A DNA stretch of 64,000 nt, taken from assembly GCF_044324875.1 (NCBI RefSeq), contig NZ_CP172185.1. One strand, given 5' to 3'. Source of the DNA: Escherichia coli. Lineage in GTDB: Bacteria > Pseudomonadota > Gammaproteobacteria > Enterobacterales > Enterobacteriaceae. Position numbers and translations under genes: made by a program. The notes below the pieces were generated by a model. The model saw only the letters and a list, made by a program, of their open reading frames with translations, was not told the DNA's origin and made no database searches. Below are positions 14,823-55,329 of the stretch, in pieces. Position 1 is the first letter of the stretch. The number at the start of each line of letters is the position of its first letter.

Positions 14823-14847
14823 AGGATGGCGTTCATGCGCCATCCTC
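14823..14847 (+). terminator. Hairpin downstream of glpQ
   Basis: aggatggcg-ttcat-gcgccatcct inverted repeat immediately after the glpQ stop. Confidence 0.45.
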
Positions 14848-15033
14848 TGCTAAAGCGAAATAATGCTACTTCCGGTTGTTCTATTCATTAACCGGTGCAT
14901 CCTGTTAAAAAAGATGCCAACATATTTGCGTAAAACTCATTCGTTAAGAAAGCTAACACTGGGCATTGTTATTCCTTAAACAGTATGAATTGGGTTCAAT
15001 AATAAATTGTATTGCAGTTTATACTGTAAAGTA

Positions 15034-16140
15034 TTATTCGCATTTCGGGAAAGTAAAGAAAATATTAATGTATCTTATTAATTTATTATATTGTTCTTGA
15101 GTGAATGCTATTTGCACACCTTCAGGATAATATTCACCAGTAATAACCAGTTGTCCATTGCTGTGTTGTACCATTAAACCTTTTTTTTCCTTTGGATCTT
15201 CAAACTTAGAATTATCAAACGTGAAGATGTTATTTTCCTGTTTTGAGTAAGCAAAGAAATCTCGTGTATAGCTGAAACTATCATTTATTAATGGTGCTAA
15301 CTTTTTGTCGGCGATATCGATAAGCTCACCACTTAATTTATTGATGTATTTCATTTGGTTCAATTTTTTCTGCGCTTGTACAATTTGCTTGTAGGTATTT
15401 TTAATTTCCTTAGAAGAATTCTTGAATTTATCATAGCGTTCCACGGAGGATGCGTATTTGTACCATTCTGTATTTTTCTCAGAATGTAGTAGCAGGTCTG
15501 TATATTTTTTTTGATCGCTGTAAAGTTGACTTTTAATACTTTCCTCACTGCTGGTTTTATAAGGTTTATCAGAGCTGTTTATTTTTGAAATGTCTTTTTC
15601 TGTCGGTGACTGGACCGTGTTGTGGATATTTTCTTTTATAACATGTTCATTGATGATGTTAATTGCAGTTTCATATTCATTTAAGTTTATTGTTCTTTGT
15701 GAAATAAACCCTTCTTTGCTTTCGACACTCAAAATACCTTCGTTGTTTTCACCTCGGGTAAAGGTAAGGGTATAGGGTTCATAATCCGCTGCAAATTCAT
15801 TTTTATACGTTATGACATGTTCGACAAAATGTCTTATTGGTACGAAACCATAACTGTGAACGTCAATTTTTTGGGTCTTGATACTATCAATTGCATCTGA
15901 GGCTTTCGTGAAAAAAGCCAATAAATTAGCTATACTGTCTGCTGAAGTTGATAACCCGTATCTACTTTGAGATATTTTTAGAAACTCATCGCAAAAAAAC
16001 TCAAGTTTCGCGGTTTGTTGTGATTCTTTGTAAATTTCTGCTGGTTGCAATTTATTATTTTGTAAAATATTACAGCGAGATAAGTGAATAGATGTATTTG
16101 GAATAAATGATTCCTTGTATTGTGAGTTAACAAGATACAA
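15034..16140 (-). CDS. Hypothetical protein, 368 aa, AT-rich orphan; no recognisable domain, no signal peptide or TM segment
   Basis: Long uninterrupted ORF in a markedly AT-rich stretch (roughly 30% G+C by eye against about 50% around it); Lys/Asn/Tyr/Ile-rich codon usage unlike neighbours; no canonical SD at the first ATG, so the start is uncertain. Confidence 0.55.
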   Translation of the reverse strand: MYLVNSQYKESFIPNTSIHLSRCNILQNNKLQPAEIYKESQQTAKLEFFCDEFLKISQSRYGLSTSADSIANLLAFFTKASDAIDSIKTQKIDVHSYGFVPIRHFVEHVITYKNEFAADYEPYTLTFTRGENNEGILSVESKEGFISQRTINLNEYETAINIINEHVIKENIHNTVQSPTEKDISKINSSDKPYKTSSEESIKSQLYSDQKKYTDLLLHSEKNTEWYKYASSVERYDKFKNSSKEIKNTYKQIVQAQKKLNQMKYINKLSGELIDIADKKLAPLINDSFSYTRDFFAYSKQENNIFTFDNSKFEDPKEKKGLMVQHSNGQLVITGEYYPEGVQIAFTQEQYNKLIRYINIFFTFPKCE

Positions 16141-16569
16141 TCTAATCTTTGCAAAATATATTCACTATCAAATTTAGCTCATTTTATTACGAAGACCTTT
16201 ACGCATGGTAGAAAGTATCATTATTGTTAATAAATACGGTAATAAGTAACAAACAGATATTGATAACTTCCCTGAAAAGTTACTAGGTATCCCACTTGAA
16301 GATTGAGAATGGCTCCAGAGTAAACTGTGTACTGTTCGCCGGAGTGTCATTACTCTCAACGATCGGTTTTGACAGTGAGTCGGGCGCTTCATACCGATTT
16401 CTACCTGGAGTCATTGTCACTTCTCCCAACTGGATAAATATATATCGCCAATTCACAAAGTGGGCCAAAATCAGGTGAAAACGAATTATTACGCCTGGTA
16501 AAGGCTATAGTACAACTAAGTGTGGCGAATCAGGCAGTCTTGCATTTGTCATCAATCTCATGTCTTACA

Positions 16570-17448
16570 TCAAATTTTTCCACTCACCACGAGTTGTTCC
16601 GTACACATTTGTAGTAAAAACAGTGGACTGCCTTCTACCGGTTTTTCTTTAGCCAACAACGAAATCTGTCGATAGAAGGTTGGTTCGAGAGGAACGGAAC
16701 ACAATTCACCTGCAATGGTTTTCAGCGTTAACTCTGGTAATAAGGCGATACCTAATCCCTGTCGAATAAAACTGATCGCTGTATCCGGGTGATTAAATTC
16801 ATATTTTATCTGTGGGGTAATATTCTTTTCTTTAAATAGTGCCATAATGCTTAATTCATAGCGTCCTTTACTAATGATTAATGGTTCACCCATTAATTCT
16901 TCCACTGTAATAGTGCTGTTTTTTGCCAGAGCATGGTTGGGCGGTAACACTACGGTGAATTTATCCTGATAAATGGGCACGGAGTACATTCCGCTCACCG
17001 GAAAATGAACAAAACCGGCATCAATGGATTCATTCTGAAGGGAATCAATAATCGCTGTGCTATTTTCCTCAAAAGGAATAATTTTTATATTCGGATGATG
17101 AATTTCAAAGTAGCGAATCACAACCGGTAAGATACAGGCGCAGACGCTGGGGAAACAACCAAGTCTCAGCGTTCTTTGAGGGTTCTGCTTTTCCTGCTCG
17201 GCTATCTCTTTTACTGCGTTCACTTCCCGATTAATGGCGCGCAGATGATGCATAATGCGGTGACCTGCAGAGGTCAGTTGTATAGCTTTACGGCGATCGC
17301 GTAACAGTATATTCACGCCAAGTTCTTGTTCGAGGGCAGCAATTGCCTGACTTACCGCCGACTGCGTCATGAACAATCGTTTGCTGGCTTCAGTAAAGCC
17401 ACCGTAATCCAGCACGGCGAGTAAAGAATTTATTTGGGTAAGAGTCAT
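16570..17448 (-). CDS. LysR-family transcriptional regulator (intact yfaH-like gene)
   Basis: 292-aa ORF with N-terminal LysR HTH (FTEASKRLFMTQSAVSQAIAALEQELG) and C-terminal substrate-binding domain; divergent from an MFS gene. Confidence 0.8.
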   Translation of the reverse strand: MTLTQINSLLAVLDYGGFTEASKRLFMTQSAVSQAIAALEQELGVNILLRDRRKAIQLTSAGHRIMHHLRAINREVNAVKEIAEQEKQNPQRTLRLGCFPSVCACILPVVIRYFEIHHPNIKIIPFEENSTAIIDSLQNESIDAGFVHFPVSGMYSVPIYQDKFTVVLPPNHALAKNSTITVEELMGEPLIISKGRYELSIMALFKEKNITPQIKYEFNHPDTAISFIRQGLGIALLPELTLKTIAGELCSVPLEPTFYRQISLLAKEKPVEGSPLFLLQMCTEQLVVSGKI

Positions 17449-17469
17449 TAGAGTTTGCTAATCAATAAT

Positions 17470-17484
17470 ATTAAAACGATTAAT
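17470..17484. promoter_or_regulatory. Candidate LysR-type binding motif (T-N11-A-like dyad) in the LysR/MFS divergent region
   Basis: attaaaacgattaat = ATTAA-N5-TTAAT inverted repeat in the 151-bp divergent intergenic region. Confidence 0.35.
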
Positions 17485-17599
17485 TTCTCTAATAGCATGC
17501 CGCCATTTATACTTCTGTTCTGCAAAGTACATCACAATTTGACGCAACCGCAGTAACGGGAGTGTTGTCTGCGTGCGTCATCCTGACAGGCGGTAGGGT

Positions 17600-18790
17600 A
17601 TGAAAGAGAAGTTATGGACGAAGGATTTTTGGGCAATAACCATCATCAGCTTTATTATTTTCTTCGTCTTTTATGTTTTACTAACATTGTTGCCAATTTA
17701 TATCTCTGACCGCTTGCATGCCTCTCCTGATAAAGCAGGTTTGTTGGTGACTTTATTTTTAATTGCGGCGATTGTTATTCGCCCCTTTGCCGGGCAATGG
17801 GTGGGTAAATATTCGAATAAAACTATTCTGGTGCTCTCTTCTCTGGCCTTTTTGTTGGTCACTGCGTTGTATCCTTTTTGCCTCTCAATTGAATCACTGC
17901 TTTTTATTCGGGTGCTTCATGGTATTACCTTCGGGGTTATCACTACGGTAAAAGGAACGATTTCCGCGCGGCTGATCCCGGCCTCCCGACGTGGGGAGGG
18001 CATCAGTTTTTTCTCTTTGGCAATGGGGCTGGCAATGGTGGTCGGGCCGTGGATTGGCCTGAATATGGCGCGCTGGGAGGCCTTTAATATGGCTTTCTGG
18101 TTATGCACCGGCGTGGCAGCGGTGGGGATTATTCTGTCGCTGATTATGACAGTGCCGCCGGTTATCAGCCATGCTGATGGTTCAACGCCGAAAATGGGCT
18201 TCGCCGCCATGTTCGATCGCGCGGCGTTGCCATTTGCGATGGTCACCTTTTTTATGACCTTTTCGTATGCCGGGGTTTCTGCTTTTCTGGCGCTTTATGC
18301 ACGCGAACTTAACCTGATGTCGGCAGCCAGTAATTTCCTGCTTTGCTACGCTATCTTCCTGATGATTTGCCGTACCTTTACCGGCAATGTCTGCGACAAA
18401 AAAGGACCGAAATATGTGGTTTACCCTTGCCTTGTGTTCTTTACGGTAGGACTGGTGGTTCTCGGCTACACCCAGGGAAGCATAATGATGGTTGTTTCTG
18501 GCGCATTGATTGGTATCGGGTATGGTTCCGTGACGCCAGTTTTTCAGACGCAGATTATCAGTTCAGTGGAACCGCATAAAATCGGTGTCGCAAACTCCCT
18601 CTTCTTCAATGCGATGGATGCAGGCCTGGCGCTGGGAGCCTGTGTGATGGGGATGATGGTTGCACATACTGGCTACCGAATGATTTATCTGCTGGGTGCA
18701 CTATTAGTGGTAGTGGCTGGTGGAGTCTATGCGCTGCAAATGAAGGGTAAAAGCGGTGTCGCGCTAGTAGTGGCAAAAGAAATTCATTAA
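17600..18790 (+). CDS. MFS transporter (12-TM), substrate unknown
   Basis: 396-aa highly hydrophobic ORF with MFS-like organisation, divergently paired with the LysR regulator. Confidence 0.8.
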   Translation: MKEKLWTKDFWAITIISFIIFFVFYVLLTLLPIYISDRLHASPDKAGLLVTLFLIAAIVIRPFAGQWVGKYSNKTILVLSSLAFLLVTALYPFCLSIESLLFIRVLHGITFGVITTVKGTISARLIPASRRGEGISFFSLAMGLAMVVGPWIGLNMARWEAFNMAFWLCTGVAAVGIILSLIMTVPPVISHADGSTPKMGFAAMFDRAALPFAMVTFFMTFSYAGVSAFLALYARELNLMSAASNFLLCYAIFLMICRTFTGNVCDKKGPKYVVYPCLVFFTVGLVVLGYTQGSIMMVVSGALIGIGYGSVTPVFQTQIISSVEPHKIGVANSLFFNAMDAGLALGACVMGMMVAHTGYRMIYLLGALLVVVAGGVYALQMKGKSGVALVVAKEIH

Positions 18791-28700: not shown

Positions 28701-28846
28701 TGGCACTTCTACTCCGTAATTGGCAAGACAAACGAGTATATCAGGCATTGGATGTGAATAAAGCGTATAGGTTTACCTCAAACTGCGCGGCTGTGTTATA
28801 ATTTGCGACCTTTGAATCCGGGATACAGTAGAGGGATAGCGGTTAG

Positions 28847-31474
28847 ATGAGCGACCTTGCGAGAGAAATTACACCGGTCAACATTGAGGAAGAGCTGAAG
28901 AGCTCCTATCTGGATTATGCGATGTCGGTCATTGTTGGCCGTGCGCTGCCAGATGTCCGAGATGGCCTGAAGCCGGTACACCGTCGCGTACTTTACGCCA
29001 TGAACGTACTAGGCAATGACTGGAACAAAGCCTATAAAAAATCTGCCCGTGTCGTTGGTGACGTAATCGGTAAATACCATCCCCATGGTGACTCGGCGGT
29101 TTATGACACGATCGTCCGTATGGCGCAGCCATTCTCGCTGCGTTACATGCTGGTAGACGGTCAGGGTAACTTCGGTTCCATCGACGGCGACTCTGCGGCG
29201 GCAATGCGTTATACGGAAATCCGTCTGGCGAAAATTGCCCATGAACTGATGGCCGATCTCGAAAAAGAGACGGTCGATTTCGTTGATAACTATGACGGCA
29301 CGGAAAAAATTCCGGACGTCATGCCAACCAAAATTCCTAACCTGCTGGTGAACGGTTCTTCCGGTATCGCCGTAGGTATGGCAACCAACATCCCGCCGCA
29401 CAACCTGACGGAAGTTATCAACGGTTGTCTGGCGTATATCGATGATGAAGACATCAGCATTGAAGGGCTGATGGAACACATCCCGGGGCCGGACTTCCCG
29501 ACGGCGGCAATCATCAACGGTCGTCGCGGTATTGAAGAAGCTTACCGTACCGGTCGCGGCAAGGTATATATCCGCGCCCGTGCTGAAGTGGAAGTTGACG
29601 CTAAAACCGGACGTGAAACCATTATCGTCCACGAAATTCCGTATCAGGTAAACAAAGCGCGCCTGATCGAGAAGATTGCGGAACTGGTAAAAGAAAAACG
29701 CGTGGAAGGCATCAGCGCGCTGCGTGACGAGTCTGACAAAGACGGTATGCGCATCGTGATTGAAGTGAAACGCGATGCGGTCGGTGAAGTTGTGCTTAAC
29801 AACCTCTACTCCCAGACCCAGTTGCAGGTTTCTTTCGGTATCAACATGGTGGCATTGCATCATGGTCAGCCGAAGATCATGAACCTGAAAGACATCATCG
29901 CGGCGTTTGTTCGTCACCGCCGTGAAGTGGTGACCCGTCGTACTATTTTCGAACTGCGTAAAGCTCGCGATCGTGCTCATATCCTTGAAGCATTAGCCGT
30001 GGCGCTGGCGAACATCGACCCGATCATCGAACTGATCCGTCATGCGCCGACGCCTGCAGAAGCGAAAACTGCGCTGGTGGCTAATCCGTGGCAGCTGGGC
30101 AACGTTGCCGCGATGCTCGAACGAGCGGGCGATGATGCTGCGCGTCCGGAATGGCTGGAACCAGAGTTCGGCGTGCGCGATGGTCTGTACTATCTGACCG
30201 AACAGCAAGCCCAGGCAATTCTGGATCTGCGTCTGCAGAAACTGACCGGTCTTGAGCACGAAAAACTGCTCGACGAATACAAAGAGCTGCTGGATCAGAT
30301 CGCAGAACTGCTGCGTATTCTTGGCAGTGCCGATCGTCTGATGGAAGTGATCCGCGAAGAGCTGGAACTGGTTCGTGAACAGTTCGGTGACAAACGTCGT
30401 ACTGAAATTACTGCCAACAGCGCCGACATCAACCTGGAAGATCTGATCACCCAGGAAGATGTGGTCGTGACGCTCTCTCACCAGGGCTACGTGAAGTATC
30501 AGCCGCTTTCTGAATACGAAGCGCAGCGTCGTGGCGGGAAAGGTAAATCTGCCGCACGTATTAAAGAAGAAGACTTTATCGACCGACTGCTGGTGGCGAA
30601 CACCCACGACCATATTCTGTGCTTCTCCAGCCGTGGTCGCGTCTATTCGATGAAAGTCTATCAGTTGCCGGAAGCCACTCGTGGCGCGCGCGGTCGTCCG
30701 ATCGTCAACCTGCTGCCGCTGGAGCAGGACGAACGTATCACTGCCATCCTGCCGGTGACCGAGTTTGAAGAGGGCGTGAAAGTCTTCATGGCGACCGCTA
30801 ACGGTACCGTGAAGAAAACTGTCCTCACCGAGTTCAACCGTCTGCGTACCGCCGGTAAAGTGGCGATCAAACTTGTTGAAGGCGATGAGCTGATCGGCGT
30901 TGACCTGACCAGCGGCGAAGACGAAGTAATGCTGTTCTCCGCCGAAGGTAAAGTGGTGCGCTTTAAAGAGTCTTCTGTCCGTGCGATGGGCTGCAACACC
31001 ACCGGTGTTCGCGGTATTCGTTTAGGCGAAGGCGATAAAGTCGTCTCTCTGATCGTGCCTCGTGGCGATGGCGCAATCCTCACCGCAACGCAGAACGGTT
31101 ATGGTAAACGTACCGCAGTGGCGGAATACCCGACTAAGTCGCGTGCGACGAAAGGGGTTATCTCCATCAAGGTTACCGAACGTAACGGTTTAGTGGTTGG
31201 CGCGGTGCAGGTAGATGACTGCGACCAGATCATGATGATCACCGATGCCGGTACGCTGGTACGTACTCGCGTTTCGGAAATCAGCATCGTGGGCCGTAAC
31301 ACCCAGGGCGTGATCCTCATCCGTACTGCGGAAGATGAAAACGTAGTGGCTCTGCAACGTGTTGCTGAACCGGTTGACGAGGAAGATCTGGATACCATCG
31401 ACGGCAGTGCCGCGGAAGGGGACGATGAAATCGCTCCGGAAGTGGACGTTGACGACGAGCCAGAAGAAGAATAA
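28847..31474 (+). CDS. gyrA: DNA gyrase subunit A
   Basis: 875-aa [50 protein letters not shown]...; QRDR reads [11 protein letters not shown] (Ser83 and Asp87 wild type); acidic C-terminal tail. Confidence 0.97.
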
Positions 31475-31622
31475 TTTTACTTCTTCATGCCAAAAGGGAG
31501 CTATCTCCCTTGTTTGAATTGAAAAGTCCAGGCTGCAAAGTCTGGGCTTTTGTCGTATTAGGGCGCGGTAAAGTTTTGCTGTGCTCGTAAAAAATGGCTG
31601 GCTTTACACAAGGAATGTGGCA

Positions 31623-38469
<6,847 letters not shown>

Positions 38470-48390: not shown

Positions 48391-51240
48391 TTGAAATACC
48401 TTGCTTCTTTTCGTACAACCCTGAAAGCCTCGCGCTACATGTTCAGAGCATTGGCGTTAGTGCTCTGGCTGTTGATTGCTTTTTCATCCGTTTTTTACAT
48501 CGTTAATGCGTTACATCAGCGAGAATCGGAAATTCGTCAGGAATTTAATCTGAGTTCCGATCAGGCTCAGCGCTTTATTCAACGCACCTCTGATGTGATG
48601 AAAGAGCTGAAGTACATCGCCGAAAATCGCTTATCGGCAGAAAACGGTGTGCTTTCCCCGCGTGGACGAGAAACGCAGGCGGATGTGCCTGCGTTTGAAC
48701 CGCTGTTTGCCGACTCCGATTGTTCCGCAATGAGTAACACCTGGCGAGGCTCTCTGGAGTCATTGGCGTGGTTTATGCGCTACTGGCGCGATAATTTCTC
48801 TGCAGCTTACGATCTCAACCGGGTATTTTTAATCGGCAGCGATAACCTCTGCATGGCCAATTTCGGTCTGCGTGATATGCCAGTGGAACGCGATACCGCG
48901 TTGAAAGCGTTGCATGAACGCATCAATAAATATCGAAATGCACCACAAGATGATAGCGGCAGTAACCTCTACTGGATCAGCGAAGGTCCGCGCCCTGGCG
49001 TCGGGTATTTTTACGCGTTGACGCCAGTTTATCTGGCGAACCGGTTGCAGGCGCTTTTGGGTGTCGAGCAGACCATCCGGATGGAGAACTTTTTCTTACC
49101 TGGTACGTTGCCGATGGGGGTTACCATTCTTGATGAAAATGGTCATACCCTGATTTCGCTTACCGGACCAGAAAGCAAAATTAAGGGCGATCCTCGCTGG
49201 ATGCAGGAACGCTCCTGGTTTGGCTATACGGAAGGGTTCCGGGAGCTGGTGCTGAAGAAAAATCTGCCACCCTCATCGCTAAGCATCGTGTATTCGGTGC
49301 CGGTTGATAAGGTGCTGGAACGCATTCGCATGTTGATCCTTAACGCAATTTTGCTGAATGTGCTTGCCGGAGCTGCATTGTTTACTCTCGCGCGGATGTA
49401 CGAGCGGCGTATTTTCATTCCGGCGGAAAGCGACGCCTTGCGACTGGAAGAACATGAGCAGTTTAATCGCAAGATTGTCGCCTCCGCGCCAGTGGGTATC
49501 TGCATTTTGCGTACCGCTGATGGCGTCAATATTTTAAGTAACGAACTGGCGCATACCTATCTCAATATGCTTACGCATGAGGATCGCCAACGACTGACGC
49601 AAATTATCTGTGGGCAGCAGGTCAATTTTGTTGATGTCCTGACCAGCAACAATACCAATCTGCAAATCAGCTTCGTCCATTCGCGCTATCGTAATGAAAA
49701 CGTGGCCATTTGTGTGCTGGTGGATGTTTCTTCGCGCGTGAAGATGGAAGAGTCGTTGCAGGAGATGGCACAAGCAGCGGAACAGGCGAGCCAGTCAAAA
49801 TCGATGTTCCTTGCCACCGTCAGTCATGAGCTGCGAACGCCGCTGTATGGCATTATCGGTAACCTGGATCTGTTGCAAACCAAAGAGTTACCGAAAGGCG
49901 TCGATCGTCTGGTGACGGCAATGAACAACTCTTCCAGCCTGTTGTTGAAAATTATCAGCGATATTCTCGATTTCTCGAAGATTGAATCGGAACAGTTGAA
50001 GATCGAACCGCGTGAGTTTTCACCGCGTGAAGTGATGAACCACATCACCGCCAACTATTTACCGCTGGTGGTACGCAAGCAGTTAGGCTTGTACTGCTTT
50101 ATTGAACCGGATGTGCCAGTGGCCTTAAATGGCGACCCGATGCGTTTACAGCAGGTCATCTCCAACCTGTTGAGTAACGCCATAAAATTCACCGATACCG
50201 GCTGTATAGTTTTGCATGTTCGCACTGATGGCGATTATCTCTCTATCCGTGTTCGCGATACCGGCGTGGGGATTCCGGCGAAAGAAGTGGTGCGCTTGTT
50301 TGATCCCTTCTTCCAGGTCGGAACGGGCGTACAGCGTAACTTCCAGGGGACCGGTCTGGGTCTGGCGATTTGTGAAAAACTGATCAGCATGATGGACGGC
50401 GATATCTCGGTAGATTCAGAACCGGGAATGGGTAGCCAGTTTACCGTGCGTATTCCGTTGTACGGCGCTCAGTACCCGCAGAAAAAAGGCGTGGAAGGGT
50501 TGAGTGGTAAACGCTGCTGGCTGGCGGTCCGCAATGCGTCGCTCTGTCAGTTCCTGGAAACCAGTTTGCAGCGCAGCGGCATCGTCGTTACAACATACGA
50601 AGGGCAGGAACCGACTCCCGAAGATGTGTTAATCACTGACGAGGTAGTGAGCAAAAAATGGCAGGGTAGAGCGGTAGTGACCTTCTGTCGTCGCCATATT
50701 GGTATTCCGCTGGAGAAAGCGCCAGGAGAGTGGGTACACAGTGTGGCTGCTCCGCATGAGCTACCGGCATTGTTGGCGCGTATTTATTTGATCGAGATGG
50801 AGAGCGACGATCCTGCTAACGCTCTGCCGTCGACGGACAAAGCGGTCAGCGATAATGACGATATGATGATTCTGGTCGTGGATGATCATCCGATTAACCG
50901 ACGTCTGCTGGCAGATCAGTTGGGATCGTTGGGCTATCAATGTAAAACCGCGAATGATGGCGTCGATGCGCTTAATGTACTTAGCAAGAATCATATTGAT
51001 ATCGTGCTTAGCGACGTCAACATGCCAAATATGGATGGTTACCGCTTGACGCAACGCATTCGTCAGTTGGGACTGACGTTGCCGGTAATCGGAGTAACTG
51101 CTAATGCGTTGGCTGAAGAGAAGCAGCGGTGTCTGGAGTCTGGTATGGACAGCTGCCTGTCGAAGCCGGTAACGCTGGATGTGATAAAACAGACGCTAAC
51201 GGTATATGCCGAGAGGGTCAGGAAATCGCGGGAATCGTAG
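48391..51240 (+). CDS. rcsC: Hybrid sensor kinase RcsC
   Basis: 949-aa ORF MKYLASFRTTLKASRYMFRALALVLWLL... with H-box (SHELRTPL), ATPase and C-terminal receiver domain. Confidence 0.95.
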   Translation: MKYLASFRTTLKASRYMFRALALVLWLLIAFSSVFYIVNALHQRESEIRQEFNLSSDQAQRFIQRTSDVMKELKYIAENRLSAENGVLSPRGRETQADVPAFEPLFADSDCSAMSNTWRGSLESLAWFMRYWRDNFSAAYDLNRVFLIGSDNLCMANFGLRDMPVERDTALKALHERINKYRNAPQDDSGSNLYWISEGPRPGVGYFYALTPVYLANRLQALLGVEQTIRMENFFLPGTLPMGVTILDENGHTLISLTGPESKIKGDPRWMQERSWFGYTEGFRELVLKKNLPPSSLSIVYSVPVDKVLERIRMLILNAILLNVLAGAALFTLARMYERRIFIPAESDALRLEEHEQFNRKIVASAPVGICILRTADGVNILSNELAHTYLNMLTHEDRQRLTQIICGQQVNFVDVLTSNNTNLQISFVHSRYRNENVAICVLVDVSSRVKMEESLQEMAQAAEQASQSKSMFLATVSHELRTPLYGIIGNLDLLQTKELPKGVDRLVTAMNNSSSLLLKIISDILDFSKIESEQLKIEPREFSPREVMNHITANYLPLVVRKQLGLYCFIEPDVPVALNGDPMRLQQVISNLLSNAIKFTDTGCIVLHVRTDGDYLSIRVRDTGVGIPAKEVVRLFDPFFQVGTGVQRNFQGTGLGLAICEKLISMMDGDISVDSEPGMGSQFTVRIPLYGAQYPQKKGVEGLSGKRCWLAVRNASLCQFLETSLQRSGIVVTTYEGQEPTPEDVLITDEVVSKKWQGRAVVTFCRRHIGIPLEKAPGEWVHSVAAPHELPALLARIYLIEMESDDPANALPSTDKAVSDNDDMMILVVDDHPINRRLLADQLGSLGYQCKTANDGVDALNVLSKNHIDIVLSDVNMPNMDGYRLTQRIRQLGLTLPVIGVTANALAEEKQRCLESGMDSCLSKPVTLDVIKQTLTVYAERVRKSRES

Positions 51241-51432
<192 letters not shown>

Positions 51433-55090: not shown

Positions 55091-55183
55091 AAAAAAAACC
55101 GGATGCGAGGCATCCGGTTGAAATAGGGGTAAACAGACATTCAGAAATGAATGACGGTAATAAATAAAGTTAATGATGATAGC
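55091..55183 (-). ncRNA. micF: MicF antisense sRNA
   Basis: Minus-strand sequence gctatcatcattaactttatttattaccgtcattcatttctgaatgtctgtttacccctatttcaaccggatgcctcgcatccggtttttttt matches micF as I recall it, including the terminal stem-loop and U-run; divergent from ompC. Confidence 0.85.
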
Positions 55184-55329
55184 GGGAGTTATTCTAGTTG
55201 CGAGTGAAGGTTTTGTTTTGACATTCAGTGCTGTCAAATACTTAAGAATAAGTTATTGATTTTAACCTTGAATTATTATTGCTTGATGTTAGGTGCTTAT
55301 TTCGCCATTCCGCAATAATCTTAAAAAGT

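Follow-up and report, generated by a model that had tools for sequence, protein, structure and literature searches.

Introduction

Quinolones trap the gyrase-DNA cleavage complex, with the keto-acid of the drug positioned via a water-Mg2+ bridge. Gyrase is the primary quinolone target in Escherichia coli, and high-level resistance begins with changes in gyrA. Residues Ser83 and Asp87 of the A subunit are the anchors of the bridge; in purified E. coli gyrase either S83L or D87N abolishes most of the ciprofloxacin sensitivity, and the S83L + D87N double mutant enzyme has lost essentially all of it (PMC9917921). At the level of genomes, three alleles with a wild-type quinolone-resistance-determining region (QRDR) were recorded in 3 resistant and 637 susceptible, 1 resistant and 152 susceptible, and 2 resistant and 179 susceptible genomes, respectively, i.e. 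6 resistant and 968 susceptible of 974, or about 99% susceptible (PMC7067475).

Here we describe the gyrA gene carried on a 64,000-nucleotide stretch of E. coli DNA (contig NZ_CP172185.1 of assembly GCF_044324875.1; hereafter the window), and compare it with the gene of strain K-12 MG1655, with the closest allele in complete RefSeq E. coli genomes and with the allele counts across 5,426 such genomes.

Identity and genomic setting of the gene

The window carries an intact gyrA reading frame that opens with ATG and runs for 875 codons and a stop, as read from the list of open reading frames (ORFs) and the translation (Table 1). GyrA of K-12 MG1655 (b2231, NP_416734.1) has the same 875 residues in length, the same start codon, the same neighbours and the same 146 nt upstream, and its QRDR (residues 67-106), Tyr122, Arg462 and GyrA box are identical to those of the window protein. 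The two genes differ at 52 nucleotides (98.0% identity); of the codons affected, 50 are synonymous and 2, giving D678E and G835A, are non-synonymous. Such a ratio is what strong purifying selection leaves behind in a working gene.

Family and structure searches agree with this assignment. The protein scored 1310.3 bits with the NCBIfam gyrA equivalog TIGR01063 (cut-off 877), and Pfam placed the breakage-reunion domain PF00521 at residues 32-507 and six PF03989 stretches, the pinwheel blades, in the C-terminal part. It aligns end to end with the E. coli GyrA chains of structures 6rks, 6rku, 6rkv and 6rkw, and its residues 535-841 match the C-terminal domain (CTD) structure 1zi0. Thus the window protein has both the N-terminal breakage-reunion domain with Arg121 and the catalytic Tyr122 and the six-bladed beta-pinwheel CTD with the GyrA box of a gyrase A subunit. 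The box is an established hallmark of gyrase A subunits, setting them apart from those of topoisomerase IV.

Were the gene instead the paralogue parC or a pseudogene, the codons would be misnumbered and their interpretation mistaken. PF00521 and a similar motif are common to ParC, and parC models give strong partial scores; the parC_Gneg model nevertheless reached 581.4 bits on the window protein, under its cut-off of 628.9, whereas the gyrA model scored above its own. The box QRRGGKG is found in the protein, the 875 residues run without a stop or frameshift and differ from K-12 GyrA at just two positions, and RefSeq annotates gyrA at the match in 5,425 genomes. Identity with parC (topoisomerase IV subunit A) is ruled out by the family scores together with the GyrA box, and a paralogue or a pseudogene at this place is vanishingly improbable.

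The ubiG-gyrA-yfaA order is kept, which is the orthologous E. coli chromosomal position, and the neighbours annotated in both K-12 and strain NY1601 are yfaL, ubiG, gyrA, yfaA and yfaT. Along its 64 kb the window runs collinear with K-12 from 2,364,688 down to 2,303,724, with a sequence identity of about 97.4%. Of the 5,426 complete RefSeq genomes, 5,425 contain gyrA over at least 80% of its length, and gyrA is the annotation at all the matches listed. The gene is the ordinary chromosomal gyrA of E. coli, encoding DNA gyrase subunit A.

Two ORFs run antisense inside gyrA (323 and 206 aa); we treated them as incidental reading frames on the strand facing a strongly conserved gene.

Table 1. Features of the window, with positions counted from its first nucleotide.
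Feature	Position	Strand	Basis or remark
Segment absent from K-12	14847-18683		collinearity comparison
Orphan ORF, 368 aa, AT-rich (31-35% GC)	15034-16140	-	ORF list
Stretch aligning to the K-12 yfaH pseudogene position	16561-16816		91.8% identity
LysR regulator	16570-17448	-	family search
MFS transporter, divergent from the LysR gene	17600-18790	+	family search; no equivalog match
ubiG-gyrA intergenic region	28701-28846		146/146 nt identical to K-12
TGtTATAAT, putative extended -10 of gyrA	28794-28802		within the intergenic region
gyrA CDS	28847-31474	+	ORF list, TIGR01063, Pfam, GyrA structures, 98.0% nt identity to K-12
Antisense ORF inside gyrA, 323 aa	29009-29980	-	
QRDR, codons 67-106	29045-29164	+	amino acids identical to K-12; silent nt differences only
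Codon 83, TCG = Ser, wild type	29093-29095	+	direct codon reading
Codon 87, GAC = Asp, wild type	29105-29107	+	direct codon reading
Catalytic Tyr, codon 122 TAT, after Arg121	29210-29212	+	codon reading
Antisense ORF inside gyrA, 206 aa	29993-30613	-	
GyrA box QRRGGKG, residues 560-566	30524-30544	+	motif found in the translation
Codon 678, Glu for K-12 Asp (D678E), common change	30878-30880	+	K-12 comparison
Codon 835, Ala for K-12 Gly (G835A), rare	31349-31351	+	K-12 comparison
Terminator-like hairpin, 20 nt past the gyrA stop	31494-31511	+	consensus scan only; sequence as in K-12
Intact ORF, 1539 aa, at the K-12 yfaS position	33850-38469	+	
Pair of neighbouring repeats between rcsC and rcsB	51240-51430	both	Rfam naRNA4 (RF02564)
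MicF small RNA	55091-55184	-	Rfam RF00033, 116.8 bits
ORF at the K-12 ompC position, 375 aa	55518-56645	+	

The quinolone-resistance-determining region

A first-pass annotation, made from the sequence, had reported wild-type serine and aspartate codons at positions 83 and 87. Counted from nucleotide 28,847 its coordinates and codons are exact, and direct translation of the two triplets, both of which lie within the segment of residues 78-88, gave Ser and Asp. Since the reading frame shares its start codon, its length and its N-terminus with gyrA b2231 in the K-12 annotation, a shift of frame or index is ruled out. The codon call is read off deterministically from an essential, conserved gene, so that a chance test is not applicable; the fitting background is the frequency of the wild-type core among complete genomes (Table 2). 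The absence of S83L and of D87N/G/Y, also claimed there, was borne out over the entire QRDR, which is identical in amino acids to that of the quinolone-susceptible K-12 MG1655 and differs from it by three silent nucleotides (gene nt 255, 273 and 300). Codons 51, 67, 81, 82, 84, 106, 119 and 196 are in the K-12 reference state, and the gene thus has the make-up of a wild-type QRDR allele, with Ser83 and Asp87 in place and with residues 67-106, 51, 119 and 196 unsubstituted. We therefore agree with the earlier statement, a carefully worded one that also placed parC outside the window, that no quinolone resistance is predicted from gyrA here, on the grounds of the wild-type QRDR, the reference state of the other codons checked and the phenotypes recorded for the allele that carries D678E alone (see below).

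GyrA is the gyrase A subunit that carries the DNA-cleaving Tyr122, and its quinolone-binding surface is in the ancestral, drug-sensitive state. Because both anchors are present, the fluoroquinolone bridge should be anchored in the cleavage complex, and we expect the enzyme to have ordinary drug sensitivity; ciprofloxacin would then trap the gyrase as usual and no target-site resistance would come from gyrA. The identity and intactness of the gene, its residues, its synteny and the unchanged upstream region are direct observations; the susceptible phenotype of the enzyme we infer from the published biochemistry and the genotype-phenotype counts. Taken as a whole, the reading of an intact, ordinary E. 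coli gyrA in its ubiG-gyrA-yfaA setting, with a drug-sensitive quinolone surface and no gyrA target-site resistance, has in our estimate a probability of about 0.97. No feature of the sequence speaks against it.

The two substitutions in the C-terminal domain

Both amino acid differences from K-12 fall within the PF03989 region, the C-terminal domain that wraps DNA, far in sequence from residues 67-106. D678E was present in 6 of the 14 equal-length members sampled from the 90% cluster, and for the allele with D678E alone 1 resistant genome was recorded against 152 susceptible ones (PMC7067475). G835A occurred in none of the 14 other equal-length members sampled from that cluster, and no mention of it was found in the searched literature. 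An identical protein is present in public data (E. coli WP_395762581.1 / XJR47089.1) on 3-4 contigs, the longest of 5.75 Mb, and the TPA draft contig DAOCXM010000001.1 (GCA_029450875.1) is identical to the window across 6,628 nt. The closest allele among the complete RefSeq genomes, that of strain NY1601 (WP_024229394.1), shares the synteny and 99.7% of the nucleotides (8 differences) and encodes Gly835 and Asp871, where the window protein has Ala835 and Glu871.

It is conceivable that D678E or G835A alters quinolone susceptibility or gyrase activity and that the allele is not functionally wild type, given that G835A is rare and that it stands only seven residues ahead of the acidic C-terminal tail, which begins near residue 842. 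We consider this very unlikely: the replacement of Gly by Ala is conservative, the nearby positions 828, 834 and 842 are also variable among the sampled E. coli GyrA sequences, the counts given above for D678E speak for a common change found almost wholly in susceptible genomes, and both substitutions are distant in sequence from the drug pocket. Most likely G835A is neutral, a conservative change in the CTD. At the junction of the last blade and the acidic tail it could, as a long shot, subtly shift the DNA wrapping and the supercoiling set-point of the gyrase of this lineage, or the way it responds to toxins or drugs aimed at gyrase, while leaving the QRDR untouched.

Upstream and downstream sequence

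A regulatory change upstream of gyrA is ruled out, the whole ubiG-gyrA intergenic region being as in K-12. It contains the sequence TGtTATAAT, which, in the light of the K-12 gyrA promoter, we take to be a putative extended -10 element of gyrA. The gyrA promoter went uncalled in a consensus scan; the scan requires a -35 match, none is present there, and its result is thus uninformative. Set against a divergence of 2.0% in gyrA and of about 2.6% over the window, the intergenic region shows no difference from K-12 in 146 nt where about 3 would be expected at the rate of the gene. The identity is consistent with promoter constraint, and statistically not compelling.

gyrA alleles in complete genomes

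To place the allele among those of the species, we searched the 5,426 complete E. coli genomes with 33-nt queries centred on codons 82-88, using megablast with a 28-base exact word, so that a genome differing from the query at codon 83 or 87 gives no match. The collection is biased to clinical isolates, and the shares in Table 2 describe the collection and not prevalence.

Table 2. States of the gyrA core around codons 83 and 87 among 5,426 complete E. coli genomes, by the silent state of Val85.
Core	Val85 GTT (as in the window)	Val85 GTC	Total	Share
Wild type	2,013	639	2,652	48.9%
S83L + D87N	1,371	331	1,702	31.4%
S83L alone	413	72	485	8.9%
Other substitution combinations or silent variants (outside the exact-word classes)			587	10.8%

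The wild-type core is the commonest single state in the collection, its clinical bias notwithstanding. The resistant alleles (S83L; S83L + D87N) are versions of the same gene at the same locus, with TTG and AAC where the window has TCG and GAC. As for the silent position, the window has GTT as its Val85 codon, and among the resistant alleles, too, GTT is commoner than GTC (Table 2). One of the 1,371 exact S83L + D87N core matches was on a plasmid-labelled record, as was one of the 5,431 full-length gyrA places on a plasmid; such a plasmid-labelled gyrA could reflect a wrongly assigned replicon or a piece of chromosome carried on a plasmid.

From the gene to the strain

A wild-type gyrA does not extend to a susceptible strain. 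Susceptibility at the strain level is not readable from gyrA because parC, parE, gyrB, the efflux regulators and any plasmids lie outside the window. The strain might still be non-susceptible to quinolones through determinants located elsewhere, such as plasmid-borne qnr, aac(6')-Ib-cr, qepA or oqxAB, up-regulation of efflux via marR, acrR or soxR, or changes in gyrB, parC or parE, and the wild-type gyrA would then be a misleading negative. In favour of this, the window is only 64 kb of a chromosome, and the identical protein occurs on a contig of 5.75 Mb. On the other hand, it is established that gyrase is the primary target and that high-level resistance starts at gyrA, and beyond its K-12 content the window holds no resemblance to a known quinolone determinant. 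The published counts bear on both sides, as 6 of the 974 genomes with a wild-type QRDR were scored as fluoroquinolone resistant, presumably through other loci, while about 99% of the genomes with such alleles were susceptible (PMC7067475). Resistance from outside the window is accordingly improbable, though less so than an effect of the two CTD substitutions.

The only DNA of the window that is absent from K-12 is a segment found whole in 710 of the 5,426 complete E. coli genomes and in parts in 4,361. No quinolone determinant could be called in it, its genes being a LysR regulator, an MFS transporter without an equivalog-level match and an orphan ORF, the last of which matched nothing when compared with Pfam, NCBIfam, PADLOC and PHROGs. 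In the full-length LysR regulator, the C-terminal 67 residues match NF007272 (PRK09729, a 68-aa 'hypothetical protein') above the cut-off, and the corresponding DNA aligns to the position of the K-12 yfaH pseudogene; from these two matches K-12 yfaH looks like a deletion remnant of a full-length LysR gene.

Other parts of the window also differ from K-12 or carry RNA elements. At the position of the K-12 yfaS pseudogene there is a single intact ORF, and in other strains this position is annotated as an alpha-2-macroglobulin family protein. The MicF small RNA gene is divergent from an ORF of 375 aa at the position of K-12 ompC (1104 nt, 367 codons). MicF and this ORF relate to porin-mediated permeability, and no susceptibility prediction is drawable from them. 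Of the two adjacent naRNA4-matching repeat copies between rcsC and rcsB, which match on both strands, one showed up in the comparison with K-12 as well, as a short self-match in inverted orientation.

Conclusions

The finding of a wild-type gyrA in this window amounts to routine annotation of a gene that has been characterised in depth, and it brings no new biology. Its allele is a single base change away from S83L (codon 83, TCG to TTG) and likewise from D87N (codon 87, GAC to AAC). As it stands, with the QRDR of GyrA in its wild-type state, this E. coli is very unlikely to be resistant to fluoroquinolones at a high level.
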